This document shows, one piece after another, positions 2,511 to 22,295 of a stretch of DNA of 33,748 nucleotides. A program made the position numbers and the translations under genes. The stretch lies in UHGV virus genome UHGV-0125592. One strand, written 5' to 3'. This DNA is from a virus. The notes beneath the pieces are model-generated. The model was not told the DNA's origin. It searched no databases and saw nothing but the letters and a program-made list of their open reading frames with translations. Numbering within the stretch: position 1 is the stretch's first letter; each line of letters begins with the position of its first letter.

Positions 2511-3230
2511 CTAATAGGGTTTAACTAAATCCTTGTAGCGCAGTACCTTCATCGTCCGTTCCTGCCAGTATCCGCCATACGGAACACGCTGGCTCAAATG
2601 GCCATAAAGATGGTGGAGTAACATGTTACCTTCCAGCAGGATCCCTGCATGGTTCCACTTATTAGCCTGGACCTGCATGATAACCATATCACCTGGCTGC
2701 GGTACGCCACTGAATTCACGGAAGCCGCACTCATACCAGCAATCGTGGTAGAAGTTTTCGGGGTAACTGTCTTCCCACCAGGGATAATCGACGCGGTAAT
2801 CCTTCAGTTCAATACCATGCTTCTGCCTGAAGTAACTCATCACCAGCCCCCAGCAATCGAAGTGACCGAGCACAAATGGGCGCTCCAGTAGCGGCAGCTC
2901 GCCCCGCGGCTGGATAGTACGTACATCCCCCTCCGGCCAGCTGACGATATGCCAGGGAAGTAACGTAGCGTCACACTGTGCCTTATCCAGTTCGCTCGCC
3001 TGCGTCGTGGCATCCGGGTGGCTGTGGACAATGGCAATCACTGTTCCCCAGTCTTCGGCAGCGGCGTAATCTTCCGGCGACAGGTGGAAATGCTCTGTCG
3101 GATCGGTTGCCAGATTACGGCAGGGAATGTACCGCTGCACCCTGCTTTTTTGCACCACTACGCCGCAGCATTCGCGCGGATATTCAGCAGCAGCATGCGC
3201 CATAATAGCGTCGATAATTTTCTGACGCAT
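2511..3230 (-). CDS. Tail assembly protein K (MPN/JAMM plus NlpC/P60 domains)
   Basis: JAMM motif HSHPDATTQASELD and a Cys/His NlpC/P60-like C-terminal region; sits at the lambda K position next to L. Confidence 0.85.
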   Translation of the reverse strand: MRQKIIDAIMAHAAAEYPRECCGVVVQKSRVQRYIPCRNLATDPTEHFHLSPEDYAAAEDWGTVIAIVHSHPDATTQASELDKAQCDATLLPWHIVSWPEGDVRTIQPRGELPLLERPFVLGHFDCWGLVMSYFRQKHGIELKDYRVDYPWWEDSYPENFYHDCWYECGFREFSGVPQPGDMVIMQVQANKWNHAGILLEGNMLLHHLYGHLSQRVPYGGYWQERTMKVLRYKDLVKPY

Positions 3231-3231
3231 A

Positions 3232-3987
3232 TCAGCTCCTGATCAGGGATGTGCCAGGGAAGCCACCGAACGGCAACTCGTTCCCCTCGCCATGCCTCAA
3301 CTTGCACGCAGTGAGCGTACCGGGGCATTCATCGAGTGACGGATCGTTAACCGGGTTGTTGTGCTTGTCGAAATAACGCGTTCCGGCATAGTCACATCCA
3401 TCACCTGAGCGATATTTGTTACGGATACACCAGGTACAAAGCGAATGTAGCTGGCGCGTCGGGATCATCAGCCCCTGCAGGTCCATTGGACTGGACAACG
3501 TAAACGCCACCACCTCGTTGGTTTCAGTGCTCTTGGCGTCAATGTAAAACACCTTCAGCTTTTCCTGCTGCGGATCCGCTGACGGGTTGCCCTCCGGATA
3601 GTTTTTCGCATCCAGATACTGCGCCAGCGTGTCATGAATCGTGACCTTTGCCTGCAGCAGGTCATCATAAGCAAGACACAGCGCCGTAATGGAACTGTCC
3701 AGGTTAGCGACCGACAGCGTCGGTTGCGCGCTGGTCCCGTCGGTCGCCGTCTCAATACCCTCTATCTGGCAGGGCCAGGCTTTATATTCCTGCCCCTGCC
3801 ACCAGATCGATTTCGCCGGTAGCTTATTTTCATCTCCACCAGCAGCGGCAATTTCATCGGGAGTGTGGGCAATATTGTGGGCGTGGAAGCGGAGAACGTC
3901 GGAAACACCAAATGCGGTGCCATCGACATCAAAAAGCCGGACAGCATTGCCCGGCTCAAGTTTCTGATAATCACTGTTTAAGTTCAT
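3232..3987 (-). CDS. Minor tail protein L
   Basis: 251 aa; similarity to lambda gpL including the C-terminal Cys cluster (CTWCIRNKYRSGDGCDY...CPGTLTAC); position between M and K. Confidence 0.85.
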   Translation of the reverse strand: MNLNSDYQKLEPGNAVRLFDVDGTAFGVSDVLRFHAHNIAHTPDEIAAAGGDENKLPAKSIWWQGQEYKAWPCQIEGIETATDGTSAQPTLSVANLDSSITALCLAYDDLLQAKVTIHDTLAQYLDAKNYPEGNPSADPQQEKLKVFYIDAKSTETNEVVAFTLSSPMDLQGLMIPTRQLHSLCTWCIRNKYRSGDGCDYAGTRYFDKHNNPVNDPSLDECPGTLTACKLRHGEGNELPFGGFPGTSLIRS

Positions 3988-16722: not shown

Positions 16723-17150
16723 TACCAAAACTCCTTTTATCAAAGAGATACCATGATAACCCCATGAATTATTTAGTAAAGCATGATCACAGACACTCAG
16801 TGAATGTCTGCTGTAACGCCTACTCAGTCGAGCTGTAGAACACCATGTTCTTCTGATTCAAAGTATGCAATAAGCATGCTGTATTCGGGGATGATACTAC
16901 CGTCATCAACTCCGCCTTTACATGTTGGTTTGTGGCAATTTACTTTTTATAGTCAAGCATCTGTCACTAAGGCGACATACTTTGAGTGCGCTTTGCTACA
17001 TTGTAAAATTTTCAGCAATGAGGCACATTAGATGTTCAGATGAAACTGTAAGTTCTTGACTCGGGCCGGATGATTAAATCATAACTTTCATTACACTTTG
17101 AGTAATCAATCTCATCCAGCATAGTTAAGCCCTGTTGATAAGGAATGTAT

Positions 17151-17570
17151 ATGGCAATTAAAATCATTGGTGGAAATATTAGTGGTAATGGTGGTGATGG
17201 CATCCATGTTGGGGATGGATTTGATATAGAGGTTATAGGCACCAAAATCACCGATAATCATCGTGATGGAATTCATGTCGCAAGCCCTAATACGAATGTT
17301 AGCATTCAAAATATTGAATGTTTCGGTAATACAAGAGATGGAGTTCATGTTGCTATAACAATGCAAGATTTAGTTAATGCTGGGTTGAAAGAAAATATAC
17401 CACAAGAAGAACTAAACAAGGCACAAAAGGTCATAGTTGAAAACACAAACAAACCACTTATAAAAATAACGTCCGCATTAAAAGGAATAGGATTCTGTCG
17501 CTGGATCACAAAAGGTTCAGAACTAGCAACAATTACGTCTCTTTTAATTCAGCTATTCACAAAAAATTAG
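17151..17570 (+). CDS. Hypothetical low-GC protein with three DGIHV beta-helix-like repeats
   Basis: 139 aa from ATG 17151 (AAGGA 6 nt upstream); repeats GDGIHVGDG / RDGIHVASPNTN / RDGVHVAIT; AT-rich relative to flanking phage genes; opposite strand to the late operon. Confidence 0.45.
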   Translation: MAIKIIGGNISGNGGDGIHVGDGFDIEVIGTKITDNHRDGIHVASPNTNVSIQNIECFGNTRDGVHVAITMQDLVNAGLKENIPQEELNKAQKVIVENTNKPLIKITSALKGIGFCRWITKGSELATITSLLIQLFTKN

Positions 17571-18909: not shown

Positions 18910-19159
18910 TAAGCCGGTCCTCCCTTTCCTTTTTCCTGTAATACCAGTTCACTGCACAGGTGATAACCGTGCATGCGATACCGACAATAATTGCCCAGTC
19001 GCTCAGGCTTAACCCTGCAATTCTGTCGGCCAACATCCAGGACACCTCTTTTGCTGTTTTAGCTGTTTCGGCGTATGCCTTCGCTGATACACCGCAGCCG
19101 GTCAGCGTGGTGCCTGTTCCATATGAAAGTCTGCTGTAAATGGTGCTCATTCTGGTCAT
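18881..19159 (-). CDS. Pinholin-type holin (S21-like) with dual start
   Basis: MTRMSTIY... has two Met codons separated by Thr-Arg (antiholin/holin pattern); Gly/Thr-rich TMD1, hydrophobic TMD2, charged C-terminus; GGAGGTGAGG ribosome-binding site; overlaps the endolysin start. Confidence 0.7.
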   Translation of the reverse strand: MTRMSTIYSRLSYGTGTTLTGCGVSAKAYAETAKTAKEVSWMLADRIAGLSLSDWAIIVGIACTVITCAVNWYYRKKEREDRLNGNVTKAEE

Positions 19160-19263: not shown

Positions 19264-19294
19264 GAAATAGAAAAGGCCACGCAAATGCGCAGCC
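19264..19294 (-). terminator. Intrinsic terminator (tR'-like), copy A, upstream of the holin
   Basis: Minus-strand transcript GGCUGCGC-AUUU-GCGUGGCC forms an 8-bp stem using two G-U wobble pairs, followed by UUUUCUAUUU; forms only in the minus-strand transcript. Confidence 0.55.
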
Positions 19295-19352
19295 TGTAAC
19301 CAGAAATCAATATTGTCTTTACATCAATTTTTCTTAAGGTTAAATTCTTCTG

Positions 19353-19428
19353 ACAAGTTGATGAAAGACAACTTGAATATTAGCTATTTGTTCTCTGTTA
19401 TGCCCGCAACCCAATGCGGGCTTTTTTT
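19353..19428 (+). ncRNA. Candidate small RNA (about 75 nt) antisense to the late transcript
   Basis: Promoter-like TTTACA (19318-19323), 17-bp spacer, TAAATT (19341-19346); internal hairpin CAAGTTG-ATGAAAGA-CAACTTG; strong terminator GCCCGCA-ACCCAA-TGCGGGC + TTTTTTT (19402-19428); no ORF. Confidence 0.4.
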
Positions 19429-19551
19429 CGCCCTGCTAAAAGTTCCACCGTTGTGAGCCTTTTTGCTATGCAATAATGGATGCGTGGTGCCGGGTGTCTC
19501 CCGGTGATCCTTTGGCTGACAACCCATGCCTCACGAACATTTCACAACGGG

Positions 19552-19581
19552 ATATAGAAAAGGCCGTGCATTTGCATAGCC
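19552..19581 (-). terminator. Intrinsic terminator, copy B (imperfect duplicate of copy A)
   Basis: Minus-strand GGCUAUGC-AAAU-GCACGGCC hairpin (one mismatch) followed by UUUUCUAUAU; shares the flanking motif ATAGAAAAGGCC...AGCC(C)TGAAA with copy A. Confidence 0.45.
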
Positions 19582-19602
19582 CTGAAAGATGTTTATGCTT
19601 TA

Positions 19603-20100
19603 TTAATTCGCTGGAATATCTGGCATGGCGCGATCCATAGAAGAGCTAATTAACGCCTTAATAGCGTTGCATACCTGATAAAATCCACCCAGCTGAGATG
19701 AGACAGAAAAACGGGAGACGTCGTCTCCTGAGCCTACTTCAGCATAAAATGATGAGTTCTCATACCAGAGTGAGATGCTTACGCCCTGCCTGTAGCCACC
19801 TGTTAGCGGAGAATCATCAAGAGTGGTTGCAATCACGAAATTCAAGTGGTAACGGCTGTCCATATTGAGTTGGGGGATTAAGACAGGAAAGAACTTCCCC
19901 TCCTCCTCCCAAATACCAATGTCCACATAAGGCCATCTTGTTCCGTCAGAACCAGTCCACTCACGAGATGTAAGATCAAGAGAACCTGAATACTCTCGTA
20001 GTAGTTCGCTCGCCTTCTCCTGAAGTTTATCCTGTAACTTCCATTGCGCCTCGACCAGTTTAGTGCGTTTTTCTTTCAGATCCTTAAATGTTAATTCCAT
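19603..20100 (-). CDS. Hypothetical protein (cargo, low GC)
   Basis: 165 aa from ATG 20100 with GGAG ribosome-binding site (MELTFKDLKEKRTKLVEAQWKLQ...); no recognisable motifs; divergent from the adjacent plus-strand operon. Confidence 0.5.
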   Translation of the reverse strand: MELTFKDLKEKRTKLVEAQWKLQDKLQEKASELLREYSGSLDLTSREWTGSDGTRWPYVDIGIWEEEGKFFPVLIPQLNMDSRYHLNFVIATTLDDSPLTGGYRQGVSISLWYENSSFYAEVGSGDDVSRFSVSSQLGGFYQVCNAIKALISSSMDRAMPDIPAN

Positions 20101-20183
20101 GCCACTCTCCAGACAACTTTTGAAAGGAATCTGCATAGTAACTCACCCTGAAAGCACATGGTTATATTTCACTTACACTGAGT

Positions 20184-20220: not shown

Positions 20221-20349
20221 CGATTGTTAAGCTGTGTGTCGAAGTGACCACTCTTAACACGTTACATTACTTTTTGCGGACCGCAATAATGTTTTTTATT
20301 ATTAAAACAGGTATTTTATGGAAAAAAATCAAACCATAGCGAGCAAATA

Positions 20350-21219
20350 GTGACCAATACTACTTCTTTTCAGATCTTCTATGATGCAGAAGACACTGAA
20401 TTGGCACAGCATAAAATTGATGCAAAAACACTTAGCATTTCCATAGGTTCTATGGCTGATTTAATTTCAGCCGCCGATAAACGGCTTAACGACGGTCAAC
20501 AAACTGTGAAGTTGATGGTGACAAACCCGGCCGAGGCTGGCTCTCTCGGCGTATCCTATACGATGATGGAACTTGTCCCACATGCAATCAATGTTGCGAA
20601 AGTGATCGGATTGACAGGGTTAGCCGGCGCAGCAATTGGTGCACCTGCATTATCGTTAATTCGACAGTTGGGAAGTAAGAAAGTCATTTCCATCACGAAA
20701 CGAGCAGGTACAAACCAATCCGTTCTTGAGCTCGAAGGTGAAGAGATTGTTTGTCATGATTCTGTAGCAAAGCTAGTGACTGATCCAGAAATTAGGAATG
20801 CTTTAGTGAACGTTGTGCGCGCACCTTTAGACGGGAAAGAAGGCGCAGTGTTCAAAGTTCTGAATGAAGACGGTATCGAAGTCGTCCGCCTGGAAGGTGA
20901 AGAAACTGAGGAAATAAAACCACTTCCCAGGGGCACTTTGCTGGAAAAAGAAGAATCAGTGGAAGAAGTAAACGTAAGATTCGTCCAAATAAACTTTGAA
21001 GGAACAAAAGGTTGGAGGATTGAGTACCTCGGAGAGGAACATGCAGTTTCGTTTGAGGATCAACTTTTTATACATCAAGTCCAAAATGGGATCGTTAGTT
21101 TCACCAAAGAAGATTTGTTTGTCGTTGACCTCAAAACAACAAAAACTTTCACTGCACGTAATGCTTCAACCAAGTATGCTATAACCAAAGTTAAGCGAAA
21201 ACGCCCTGCTGAGGCTTGA
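20350..21219 (+). CDS. Hypothetical membrane-anchored protein, first gene of a three-gene cargo operon
   Basis: 289-aa ORF (GTG start at 20350; first in-frame ATG at residue 35); central hydrophobic segment INVAKVIGLTGLAGAAIGAPALSLI, acidic C-terminal half; low GC; preceded by a 10-codon mini-ORF whose stop overlaps the GTG. Confidence 0.5.
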   Translation: MTNTTSFQIFYDAEDTELAQHKIDAKTLSISIGSMADLISAADKRLNDGQQTVKLMVTNPAEAGSLGVSYTMMELVPHAINVAKVIGLTGLAGAAIGAPALSLIRQLGSKKVISITKRAGTNQSVLELEGEEIVCHDSVAKLVTDPEIRNALVNVVRAPLDGKEGAVFKVLNEDGIEVVRLEGEETEEIKPLPRGTLLEKEESVEEVNVRFVQINFEGTKGWRIEYLGEEHAVSFEDQLFIHQVQNGIVSFTKEDLFVVDLKTTKTFTARNASTKYAITKVKRKRPAEA

Positions 21220-21275
21220 TTAACGTGGCATTAAACTTGCAGATAGCGCAACTGATCTTCTGGATAGGAGTGATT

Positions 21276-21485
21276 ATGATCATTCCTACCTTTAGTCGTT
21301 TCTGCTATTCGGCATCTGCTTTGCTATGGCGTCGATTGTTTCCTACCAGGACCTTTGAGTTCCGGTATCACGATGAAGATACTGGTACAACTAAAACACT
21401 CATAGTTAAGGTGCCAAGAAAAAACGGCAAAATGCTTACCAGCCTTATTGATGAGGCTATTTCGGAGAATTCAAAACCAAAATGA
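21276..21485 (+). CDS. Small hypothetical protein, second gene of the cargo operon
   Basis: ATG at 21276 with GGAG 8 nt upstream; 69 aa; an upstream TTG start would add a hydrophobic N-terminus; stop overlaps the next start (ATGA). Confidence 0.4.
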   Translation: MIIPTFSRFCYSASALLWRRLFPTRTFEFRYHDEDTGTTKTLIVKVPRKNGKMLTSLIDEAISENSKPK

Positions 21486-21904
21486 GTTCTCAAAGTAAAG
21501 GTTTAAGTACTGGAAAAGCGACACTTTCCACTGGTGGTTGGGGAGCAATACTCAGCGTTTTAGTTGGTGCAGTTCTTACAGACCCCAACAGCGTGTGGAG
21601 GACGGTTGCTTATGCCCTTGTGCCTGGTGTTGCTGCTGTCCTTACCTACGTGATGAATTGGTTCATTTCTAGGCATGGGTTTGAATCACCAGAAGATGCA
21701 GCTAAACGAGCGAAGTGTAAACGAGATTTAGCTGAGATCGAAAAACAGCTAAGCTCAGAGCATTTAACCCCTGAAATTGAAGCCAGGCTGATGCAGGCAA
21801 AGGCCAAGACAATTGAAATACTCGTTTCTATTGGCAGCGACTCTATCCTTGAAGCCTCATCACGTTCGAGCCAACTACCAGATACTGCCGGGCCTCAAGG
21901 CTAA
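21482..21904 (+). CDS. Two-TM membrane protein with C-terminal coiled coil, third gene of the cargo operon
   Basis: 140 aa; two hydrophobic helices (GGWGAILSVLVGAVL and VAYALVPGVAAVLTYVMNWFI) then a charged helical tail; translationally coupled to the preceding gene. Confidence 0.5.
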   Translation: MSSQSKGLSTGKATLSTGGWGAILSVLVGAVLTDPNSVWRTVAYALVPGVAAVLTYVMNWFISRHGFESPEDAAKRAKCKRDLAEIEKQLSSEHLTPEIEARLMQAKAKTIEILVSIGSDSILEASSRSSQLPDTAGPQG

Positions 21905-21926
21905 CCGGCAGTCTTGATTTTAACAA

Positions 21927-22295
21927 TCAATCATCCATGTCAAGTCGAATATCAAGCATAGCCAAACATCCGTCTATAAATCCTTCTGCCATCTGTATCT
22001 CGATGCGTATCAATTTCTCATCTTTTTTACGCGCTTTCGCAATCTTCCTCTTAGATATTCCGTATAGGTAGTGGGCAACAAGAAGTGAATGCTCATATGG
22101 TTTTCGGTTTTTCAATCGCGCCAGGCACCCTTCGATGATCAGCGCATCATCGTCAGTACAAGACGGTCGGGAGCTACCTATTTGCGGCAACAGCCCTTTA
22201 AATCCTGCAGCTATAGGAGAATAGTCCACGCCAGAACTATCACTGGCAGCCCACCCGCCCCATCTTTCGAGTAACATTTGAATATCACGCATCAC
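21927..22295 (-). CDS. Late-gene antiterminator Q (small Q family, QuuD-like)
   Basis: 122 aa; MMRDIQMLLERWGGWAA...IAAGFKGLLP...SRPSCTDDDALIIEGCLARL...AEGFIDGCLAMLDIRLDMDD matches the conserved pattern of the DLP12/phage-82-type small Q proteins. Confidence 0.75.
   Translation of the reverse strand: MMRDIQMLLERWGGWAASDSSGVDYSPIAAGFKGLLPQIGSSRPSCTDDDALIIEGCLARLKNRKPYEHSLLVAHYLYGISKRKIAKARKKDEKLIRIEIQMAEGFIDGCLAMLDIRLDMDD

Follow-up and report, generated by a model that had tools for sequence, protein, structure and literature searches.

The window analysed here, the 33,748-nucleotide stretch of UHGV virus genome UHGV-0125592 taken at its full length, is a lambda-like Citrobacter prophage, and its late genes lie on the minus strand. 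Its genes were placed by open reading frame listing and by Pfam and PHROG scans. Between the gene for the Q antiterminator and the lysis cassette, a moron ORF is followed, in late-strand order, by a putative pair of convergent small RNA (sRNA) elements; the terminase, head and tail genes are located further to the left than the lysis cassette. In late-strand order, the main features are:

22295 to 21927, minus strand: gene for the Q antiterminator (PF06530 and phrog_79, from Pfam/PHROG scans)
20136 to 19603, minus strand: moron ORF of 177 aa (ORF list; phrog_5091, annotated as unknown function, E = 1.8e-55)
19669 to 19352, both strands: putative sRNA pair (plus-strand candidate and minus-strand partner)
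19583 to 19550, minus strand: late-strand terminator copy 2, directly after the moron ORF (imperfect hairpin, -11.1 kcal/mol, then UUUUCUAUAU)
19295 to 19264, minus strand: late-strand terminator copy 1, immediately before the holin gene (9-bp stem and UUUUCUAUUUC, -14.9 kcal/mol)
19159 to 18881, minus strand: holin gene, the first lysis gene (Pfam Phage_holin_2_3 and Phage_holin_2_1)
18909 to 18361, minus strand: lysozyme gene of the lysis cassette
18382 to 17840, minus strand: Rz-like DUF2514 gene of the lysis cassette

The sRNA pair lies 3' of Q, between the coding sequence of the moron and the lysis genes. The moron ORF, for which Pfam returned no match, is situated upstream of the pair on the late strand and travels with it as one conserved module, and the holin gene, with the sequence GGTGAGG 5' of its ATG at 19159, is situated downstream. 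The interval from Q to the holin gene is made up of a plus-strand cassette (20350-21904), the 177-aa minus-strand ORF and a 370-bp intergenic region that contains the sRNA candidate. As the convergent plus-strand gene ends right at the stop codon of Q (21927), PR' cannot be accommodated at that position (21905-21927); a terminator-like hairpin (20221->20194) and the motif GGTCACTTCGAC (~20237-20248) are found 1.7 kb downstream of Q.

Several other elements of this region deserve mention. The plus-strand cassette, inverted between Q and the remaining late region, is headed by the gene for a 289-aa protein (20350-21219, plus strand; phrog_3243) that matches the PADLOC candidate defence system PDC-S42 (E = 2.7e-31), and a promoter-like site lies next to the cassette on the plus strand (20261-20290). 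The 177-aa ORF resembles a classic moron, with a promoter-like site (TTCGCA-16-TATAAC, 20188->20161, read by eye) and a terminator, namely copy 2 (19583->19550), of its own. A 141-aa ORF (17145-17570, plus strand) with a weak Beta_helix match (E = 1e-6) occupies part of the 1.5 kb that separate the Rz-like gene from the small terminase gene and is oriented opposite to the late operon.

Anatomy of the candidate sRNA gene and its late-strand neighbour

The first-pass annotation had placed a candidate sRNA between two terminator copies, in antisense orientation to the late operon. The two copies are indeed direct repeats of 31 nt (19264-19294 and 19551-19581) that are 77% identical, and both fold as a minus-strand hairpin followed by a U-tract. 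The stretch that they enclose contains the following elements:

19318-19346, plus strand: sigma-70-type promoter, with -35 element TTTACA (19318-19323), a 17-nt spacer and -10 element TAAATT (19341-19346), from a consensus scan
19352-19428, plus strand: predicted sRNA of ~77 nt (covariance model, nhmmer and fold)
19354-19375, plus strand: 5' stem-loop in which CAAGUUG (19354-19360) and CAACUUG (19369-19375) form 7 bp around the 8-nt loop AUGAAAGA (fold)
19376-19401, plus strand: unpaired stretch rich in A/U and U/G, AAUAUUAGCUAUUUGUUCUCUGUUAU, which may serve as seed and as contact region for Hfq (centroid fold)
19402-19428, plus strand: intrinsic terminator, with GCCCGCA (19402-19408), a 6-nt loop, UGCGGGC (19415-19421) and U7 (19422-19428)
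19430-19669, minus strand: STnc100-like remnant, the convergent partner (Rfam RF02076, 31.2 bits, E = 4e-5); it extends past terminator copy 2 into the end of the moron ORF
19485-19507, minus strand: conserved hairpin CACCGGGAGACACCCGG within this remnant

The promoter is found where it had been proposed, but its description as near-consensus was overstated: it scores 9/12 against the consensus, and four such sites were detected where 3.0 +/- 1.6 per 3 kb are expected by chance. The promoter match alone is no better than chance, and for this reason the case for the gene rests on homology, as its anatomy alone would be weak. A promoter-like site of equal quality (9/12; TTGTCA-18-AAAAAT, 19356->19327) overlaps the sRNA promoter on the minus strand. 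Standing face-to-face with the latter, it would, if active, give rise to an RNA of ~45 nt ending at terminator copy 1.

Judged by the spacing between the -10 element and the start site of AgvB, transcription of the sRNA is predicted to begin at G19352 or A19353. The 76-nt RNA 19353-19428 folds at -21.1 kcal/mol (z = -3.67), a value equalled by 0/200 shuffles. The 7-bp stem-loop that had been noticed after the promoter is present at 19354-19375, with concurring minimum-energy and centroid folds, and the stretch that follows it (19376-19401) is unpaired in the centroid fold and aligns with the body UUCACGUUUUGUUGUUUAUUCCUUGCC of the EcOnc42-type RNAs of E. coli introduced below. The plus-strand terminator described at the outset is equally real; its 7-bp stem contains 6 GC pairs. 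It terminates in one direction only, because AUAACAG follows the hairpin on the minus strand, and a bidirectional terminator at 19402-19428 was therefore rejected, its minus-strand side being devoid of a U-tract. That the element contains no ORF holds in practice: its sole frame, of 31 codons, starts at an ATG at 19361 and runs through the terminator to a stop codon at 19454-19456. We rejected it as the source of a small protein because it lacks a Shine-Dalgarno sequence, crosses the terminator and is absent from the relatives of the RNA. A search for tRNA and tmRNA genes found none.

On the late strand, the sRNA candidate faces a sequence that a permissive Rfam scan identifies as STnc100-like, with a match that is full-length but sub-threshold (31.2 bits vs a gathering score of 47). 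The antisense member of the pair is intact and ends at 19428, and the STnc100-like match starts at 19430, a geometry identical to that of AgvB and STnc100 in one of the E. coli-type loci (L074). The partner itself is clearly a degenerate remnant, which constitutes a genuine difference from E. coli. It lacks the 5' hairpin motif of STnc100, has only a weak 4-bp stem at the position of the terminator and no clear promoter; in place of its 5' half, the window has the final part of the moron ORF and terminator copy 2.

Homology to the occupants of an sRNA slot in E. coli prophages

"Convergent sRNA pairs" have been described at the moron site of E. coli prophages, 3' of PR' and between the moron coding sequence and the downstream phage ORF, with 5' ends that RLM-RACE identified as primary (Tree et al. 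2014, PMC4104026). Among them, AgvB sponges GcvB and AsxR sponges FnrS; both are 51-60 nt in length and consist of a conserved 42-nt 3' part and a variable 5' seed of 14-18 nt (PMC4104026). To survey this slot, we scanned IMG/VR for the hairpin TCACCGGGAGRCACCCGGCAYCA, which is exactly conserved in at least 120 lambdoid contigs and sometimes occurs in 2-3 copies per contig, and read the adjoining 200-260 nt in each of them. Among the matches listed, many E. coli-type contigs share the layout of the window: a late-strand terminator is followed by a plus-strand sRNA, which has a -10 element and ends in a GC-rich terminator with a T-run, and further on by the STnc100 terminator and the hairpin TCACCGGGAGGCACCCGGCA. 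In some of the contigs among the matches listed, Rfam assigns the plus-strand unit to AgvB (96.5 bits) or AsxR (88.1 bits), each of which directly abuts STnc100 on the opposite strand without overlap. Many contigs among the matches listed carry a third type (...CUUCACGUUUUGUUGUUUAUUCCUUGCCGCCCGCGUCUCCCWGCGCGGGCU7), for which there is no Rfam family.

The sequence of this third type equals that of the EPEC sRNA E2348C_1409.E2348C_1408.IGR, identified by RIL-seq, as printed in PMC8550237 Fig. S5, and, in the genome of E2348/69, the T-run falls on the 3' end tabulated for the latter (NC_011601:1444797, minus strand). The EPEC sRNA is a homologue of EHEC EcOnc08/21/42 and, in an Hfq-dependent manner, forms chimeras with tir and with the 5'UTRs of cfa and dppA; its RIL-seq-derived binding site lies in the EcOnc42-type body (Pearl Mizrahi et al. 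2021, PMC8550237, Fig. S5). According to reviews, EcOnc42 (aliases EcOnc21 and EcOnc08) has been detected by Northern blot and Hfq-CRAC and is located 3' of stx1AB, with its target unknown. We found the EcOnc42-type unit in 991 of 5426 complete E. coli genomes, in which it is unannotated. The first-pass annotation had thus rightly expected prophage-encoded precedents at this position, although these reside in lambdoid prophages of EHEC and EPEC and are not the sRNAs of the K-12 cryptic prophages.

For the comparison of the window with these RNAs, the window sequence was excluded from every profile and covariance model. A covariance model built from 11 EcOnc42-type E. coli sequences (R1; 70 positions) and searched with filters off matches 19359-19427 on the plus strand over its full length (1-70) with 30.6 bits (E ~9e-6), the next-best match in the window reaching 9.8 bits. 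In a search of 0.9 Mb of prophage loci, the window match comes next after the true members (64-98 bits) and exceeds the noise (<=22.7 bits). Clear of the noise but far below the true members, the window element thus qualifies as a distant homologue. Searches with nhmmer likewise returned the element as the top match in the window, whether the profile comprised the E. coli cassettes with their left flank (19271-19429, plus strand, E = 4.5e-8), the RNAs only (19358-19429, plus strand, E = 1.4e-4) or only the EcOnc42 type (19360-19428, E = 0.0026). Identity to the model consensus is ~64% overall and ~55% in the body, outside the terminator. The first-pass annotation had also proposed a covariance search against related prophages. 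Across the family, the terminator stem is paired in 98.9% of cells and shows compensatory changes at 2/7 pairs; the 5' hairpin has no covariation support.

The similarity extends beyond the transcribed region. It is the AgvB/AsxR cassettes that the window element most resembles in its left flank (GCGCAGCCTGTAACC), its -10 context (GGTTAAATTC) and its terminator. The -10 context aligns with GGTTAAAATCC, the -10 of both cassettes. Terminator copy 1 is homologous to the terminator found on the same side of the AgvB, AsxR and EcOnc42 cassettes in E. coli prophages. In E. coli, the -35 element TTGCGC is located inside this late-strand terminator, 18 nt from the -10 element. In the window, ~35 extra nucleotides part the ancestral -35 from the -10, and a new TTTACA is found at a spacing of 17 nt.

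These comparisons also bear on the minus-strand promoter-like site. It is conceivable that the functional unit lies on the minus strand, with the site at 19356->19327 driving either a short leader that ends at terminator copy 1 or the holin transcript, and that the plus-strand features are incidental. Such a reading gains some appeal from the identical 9/12 score and from the location of the site ~25 nt upstream of a strong minus-strand terminator. We nevertheless regard it as extremely improbable, since its -10 element, AAAAAT, lacks the first T and its spacer measures 18 nt, since the E. coli cassettes, in which the -10 lies 18 nt from the terminator, have no room for a promoter of this kind, and since it leaves unexplained a conserved and covarying terminator whose T-run is confined to the plus strand.

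The relationship to the EcOnc42 type, described from EHEC Sakai (Tree et al. 2014), comprises position as well as architecture. Both RNAs fill this slot on the strand opposite to the late genes, tail-to-tail with an STnc100-type element (a remnant in the window), with a late-strand terminator adjoining them and upstream of a downstream phage ORF or the lysis genes; they are similar in size (~70 nt), and both possess a -10 element of their own, a GCCCGC...GCGGGC terminator with U7 and a U/G-rich body. They differ in that the EcOnc42-type core CUUCACGUUUU and the CCUUGC(C/G) binding site (CCUUGCC) are absent from the window RNA, which has CUUGAAUAUUAG and UUCUCUGUUAU at the aligned positions, and in that the 5' hairpin of the window RNA is lacking in the E. 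coli RNAs; in addition, its -35 element is new and its host is Citrobacter. With AgvB (RF02702) and AsxR (RF02703), the element shares the slot abutting STnc100, the left flank GCGCAGCCTG(A)TAA(A)CC and a very similar terminator (UGUUAUGCCCGCAACCCAAUGCGGGCU7 in the window vs UGCUAUUGCCCGAACCCAUUCGGGCAU6). These RNAs are 51-60 nt long, whereas the window RNA measures ~77 nt and has an unrelated body, and it falls outside both Rfam classes, scoring 20.5 bits for AgvB against a gathering score of 56 and giving no match for AsxR. The CA-rich 5' end of AgvB is not conserved in it, nor does it contain the CACAACA GcvB-mimic motif.

Two further systems invite comparison. The window possesses the hairpin CACCGGGAGACACCCGGCA and flanking sequence of STnc100/PasD (EcOnc27, EcOnc13) at the equivalent late-strand position, but here the element is sub-threshold, its own terminator is degenerate, and it is the neighbour of the sRNA candidate. 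Like StxS, the short PR'-tR' transcript, and the lambda 6S RNA, the candidate would be a Hfq-binding sRNA of the prophage late region that is made in lysogens; StxS, however, is produced from the late strand by termination of PR' transcription at tR', whereas the candidate lies on the opposite strand and has its own predicted promoter.

Searches by plain sequence similarity were negative. No homologue of the element was detected by blastn among GenBank phages and the 5426 E. coli genomes, so that, by this measure, it is neither a Pas RNA nor any other E. coli sRNA. An Rfam scan of the whole window at gathering thresholds gave no match, and a permissive scan of the element yielded only weak, terminator-driven ones (RprA, rseX, leaders and AgvB at 20.5 bits). 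No match for the window element emerged from a search of the literature by sequence. PasA, PasB and PasC, which are restricted to E. coli and Shigella according to the literature, were rejected, as their probes and sequences do not match, and svsR/co293, located at the 3' end of cI, was dismissed as unrelated. On the strength of the model-based matches, we conclude that the candidate is most plausibly a divergent EcOnc42-type homologue in a known sRNA slot, which has kept the -10 element, the terminator and the U-tail but acquired a different body.

Distribution and variation in Citrobacter

The element was found only in Citrobacter prophages, where a single allele is present in about 40 contigs from IMG/VR, GTDB and metagenomes. 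It is unchanged in 29 IMG/VR contigs, 2 GTDB genomes and 9/10 metagenome contigs, and the only differences among all copies are a T insertion and a C19372A exchange, each seen once. A pattern scan covering one genome per species recovered it only in Citrobacter youngae and in a C. freundii metagenome-assembled genome. Among the carriers of the module is C. youngae CCUG 30791 (contig NZ_RPOI01000005). The C19372A exchange, found in a metagenome variant (L160), breaks a pair of the 5' hairpin without compensation. With a single invariant allele whose sole variant at a paired position is pair-breaking, the 5' hairpin is left without covariation support.

None of the 77 positions of the sRNA is variable (0/77), as compared with 1.5 variable sites per 100 in the adjacent ORF, but part of this invariance is imposed by the search patterns, which fix two-thirds of the 77 positions. 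Moreover, the sRNA is embedded in a nearly invariant module of 0.9 kb, whose core (19274-20136) shows 1.5-4 variable sites per 100 nt across 30 contigs. Given a single allele in a near-invariant module and positions that are partly fixed by the search, there is no independent signal of selection on the sRNA within the clade. Together with the STnc100-like remnant and the 177-aa ORF, the sRNA behaves as one mobile module.

The flanks of the module are mosaic, with 33-61 variable sites per 100 nt and breakpoints at ~19250 and ~20248 (loci L002-L030). In three of the loci (L007, L002 and L026), a different gene, of 256 aa, ends directly at the TCACTTCGAC junction. Citrobacter phage Chris1 (ON041214, L001) contains the same building blocks in another order (2940-3310): a terminator resembling copy 1 is followed by 270 nt of unrelated sequence, by an STnc100-like hairpin whose terminator is strong, and finally by a uspF moron that precedes the holin genes and lies on the opposite strand; a plus-strand sRNA cassette is missing there.

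The absence of a selection signal within the clade also bears on the question of whether the element is still active. It could be a decaying relic of an EcOnc42/AgvB-type gene that is no longer expressed, in which only the hairpins survive and the promoter match is fortuitous. The separation of the ancestral -35 element TTGCGC from the -10, the chance-level score of the present -35/-10 pair and the clear degeneration of the STnc100-like partner would all agree with such a state. Yet the new -35 element (4/6) lies at the optimal spacing of 17 nt from a conserved -10, the terminator is perfect (7 bp, 6 GC, U7), and the alignment with the family model is full length and untruncated, whereas loss of the terminator or the U-tail would be expected in a relic whose body has diverged to ~55% identity. 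We therefore consider decay very unlikely.

Possible functions of the sRNA

In view of the anatomy, synteny and homology of 19352-19428 on the plus strand, this interval very probably represents a genuine regulatory sRNA gene of a lambda-like prophage from Citrobacter. The proposal of a non-coding RNA gene of ~75 nt on the plus strand has thus gained support, namely from homology and synteny with validated Hfq-binding sRNAs. As to its mode of action, we think it likely that the element is a stand-alone sRNA gene in the moron slot, distantly homologous to the EcOnc42 type, whose ~77-nt product is expressed in the lysogen and acts in trans in an Hfq-dependent manner. By analogy with its relatives, the sRNA would be made in the lysogen from its own sigma-70 promoter and end at the U7 terminator. 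Hfq may then bind the terminator and U-tail together with the A/U-rich stretch, leaving the U/G-rich single-stranded region (~19376-19401) to pair in trans with mRNAs or sRNAs of the host, or possibly of the phage, a function that would make the sRNA a regulator of lysogenic conversion. As no E. coli relative shares its candidate seed, it should have other targets than AgvB, AsxR and EcOnc42. A search for trans targets within the prophage using RNAduplex gave a best value of -20.8 kcal/mol, which is inside the range obtained with shuffled sequences (-18.6 to -23.0), and none stands out.

The antisense orientation of the RNA to the late and lysis genes, stressed by the first-pass annotation, is correct, but the antisense function that it implied is at most secondary, as the known relatives act in trans. 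The element could, in principle, be primarily a cis-antisense regulator, with the sRNA itself or convergent transcription blocking or destabilising late read-through toward the holin gene and thereby keeping the lysis genes silent in the lysogen or tuning the timing of lysis. Its position is suggestive in this respect, since the sRNA gene lies wholly between two late-strand terminators, 115 nt upstream of the holin start. Furthermore, its late-strand partner, other than in E. coli, has lost its own terminator, so that read-through past copy 2 must cross the whole sRNA gene before it reaches copy 1, and the two RNAs would consequently be fully complementary. However, the convergent RNAs of E. 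coli abut without overlap, which means that pairing between sense and antisense RNA is not conserved in this slot, and the relatives with characterised functions act on targets in trans (GcvB for AgvB, FnrS for AsxR, and cfa, dppA and tir for the EcOnc42 type). For these two reasons, a primary role in cis ranks second to regulation in trans; we judge it unlikely, all the more as a Q-modified polymerase should ignore both terminators and collisions.

A more elaborate scheme combines the two modes of action. Through the loss of the terminator of the late-strand partner, the sRNA and this partner might have become an obligate sense/antisense pair that gates read-through into the holin gene, as a safety catch or timer of lysis, perhaps with a GcvB-like U/G-rich seed (UAUUUGUUCUCUGUU) that rewires amino-acid and peptide transport of the host in trans. 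We hold this scheme to be distinctly unlikely; if true, it would represent a dual cis/trans function that has not been described for the AgvB/AsxR/EcOnc42 slot.

With the trans-acting sRNA as the preferred reading, the element is a genus-specific addition to a known class of prophage sRNAs, an incremental one that does not entail a new mechanism. The convergent-sRNA slot, described so far only in pathogenic E. coli and Shigella, now extends to Citrobacter prophages, and it acts as a cassette that exchanges its body and seed but retains its -10 element and terminator. Such behaviour lends support to the idea of temperate phages as carriers of rapidly evolving sRNA morons that address the Hfq networks of their hosts. 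For lysogens of the Citrobacter freundii complex, including those represented by human-gut metagenome contigs, the element provides a previously unannotated sRNA candidate.

Some lambdoid contigs (L036, L066 and L080) harbour three to five STnc100 copies in tandem, with five Rfam matches between positions 2197 and 3380 in L036, which suggests a local amplification of the late-strand sRNA.
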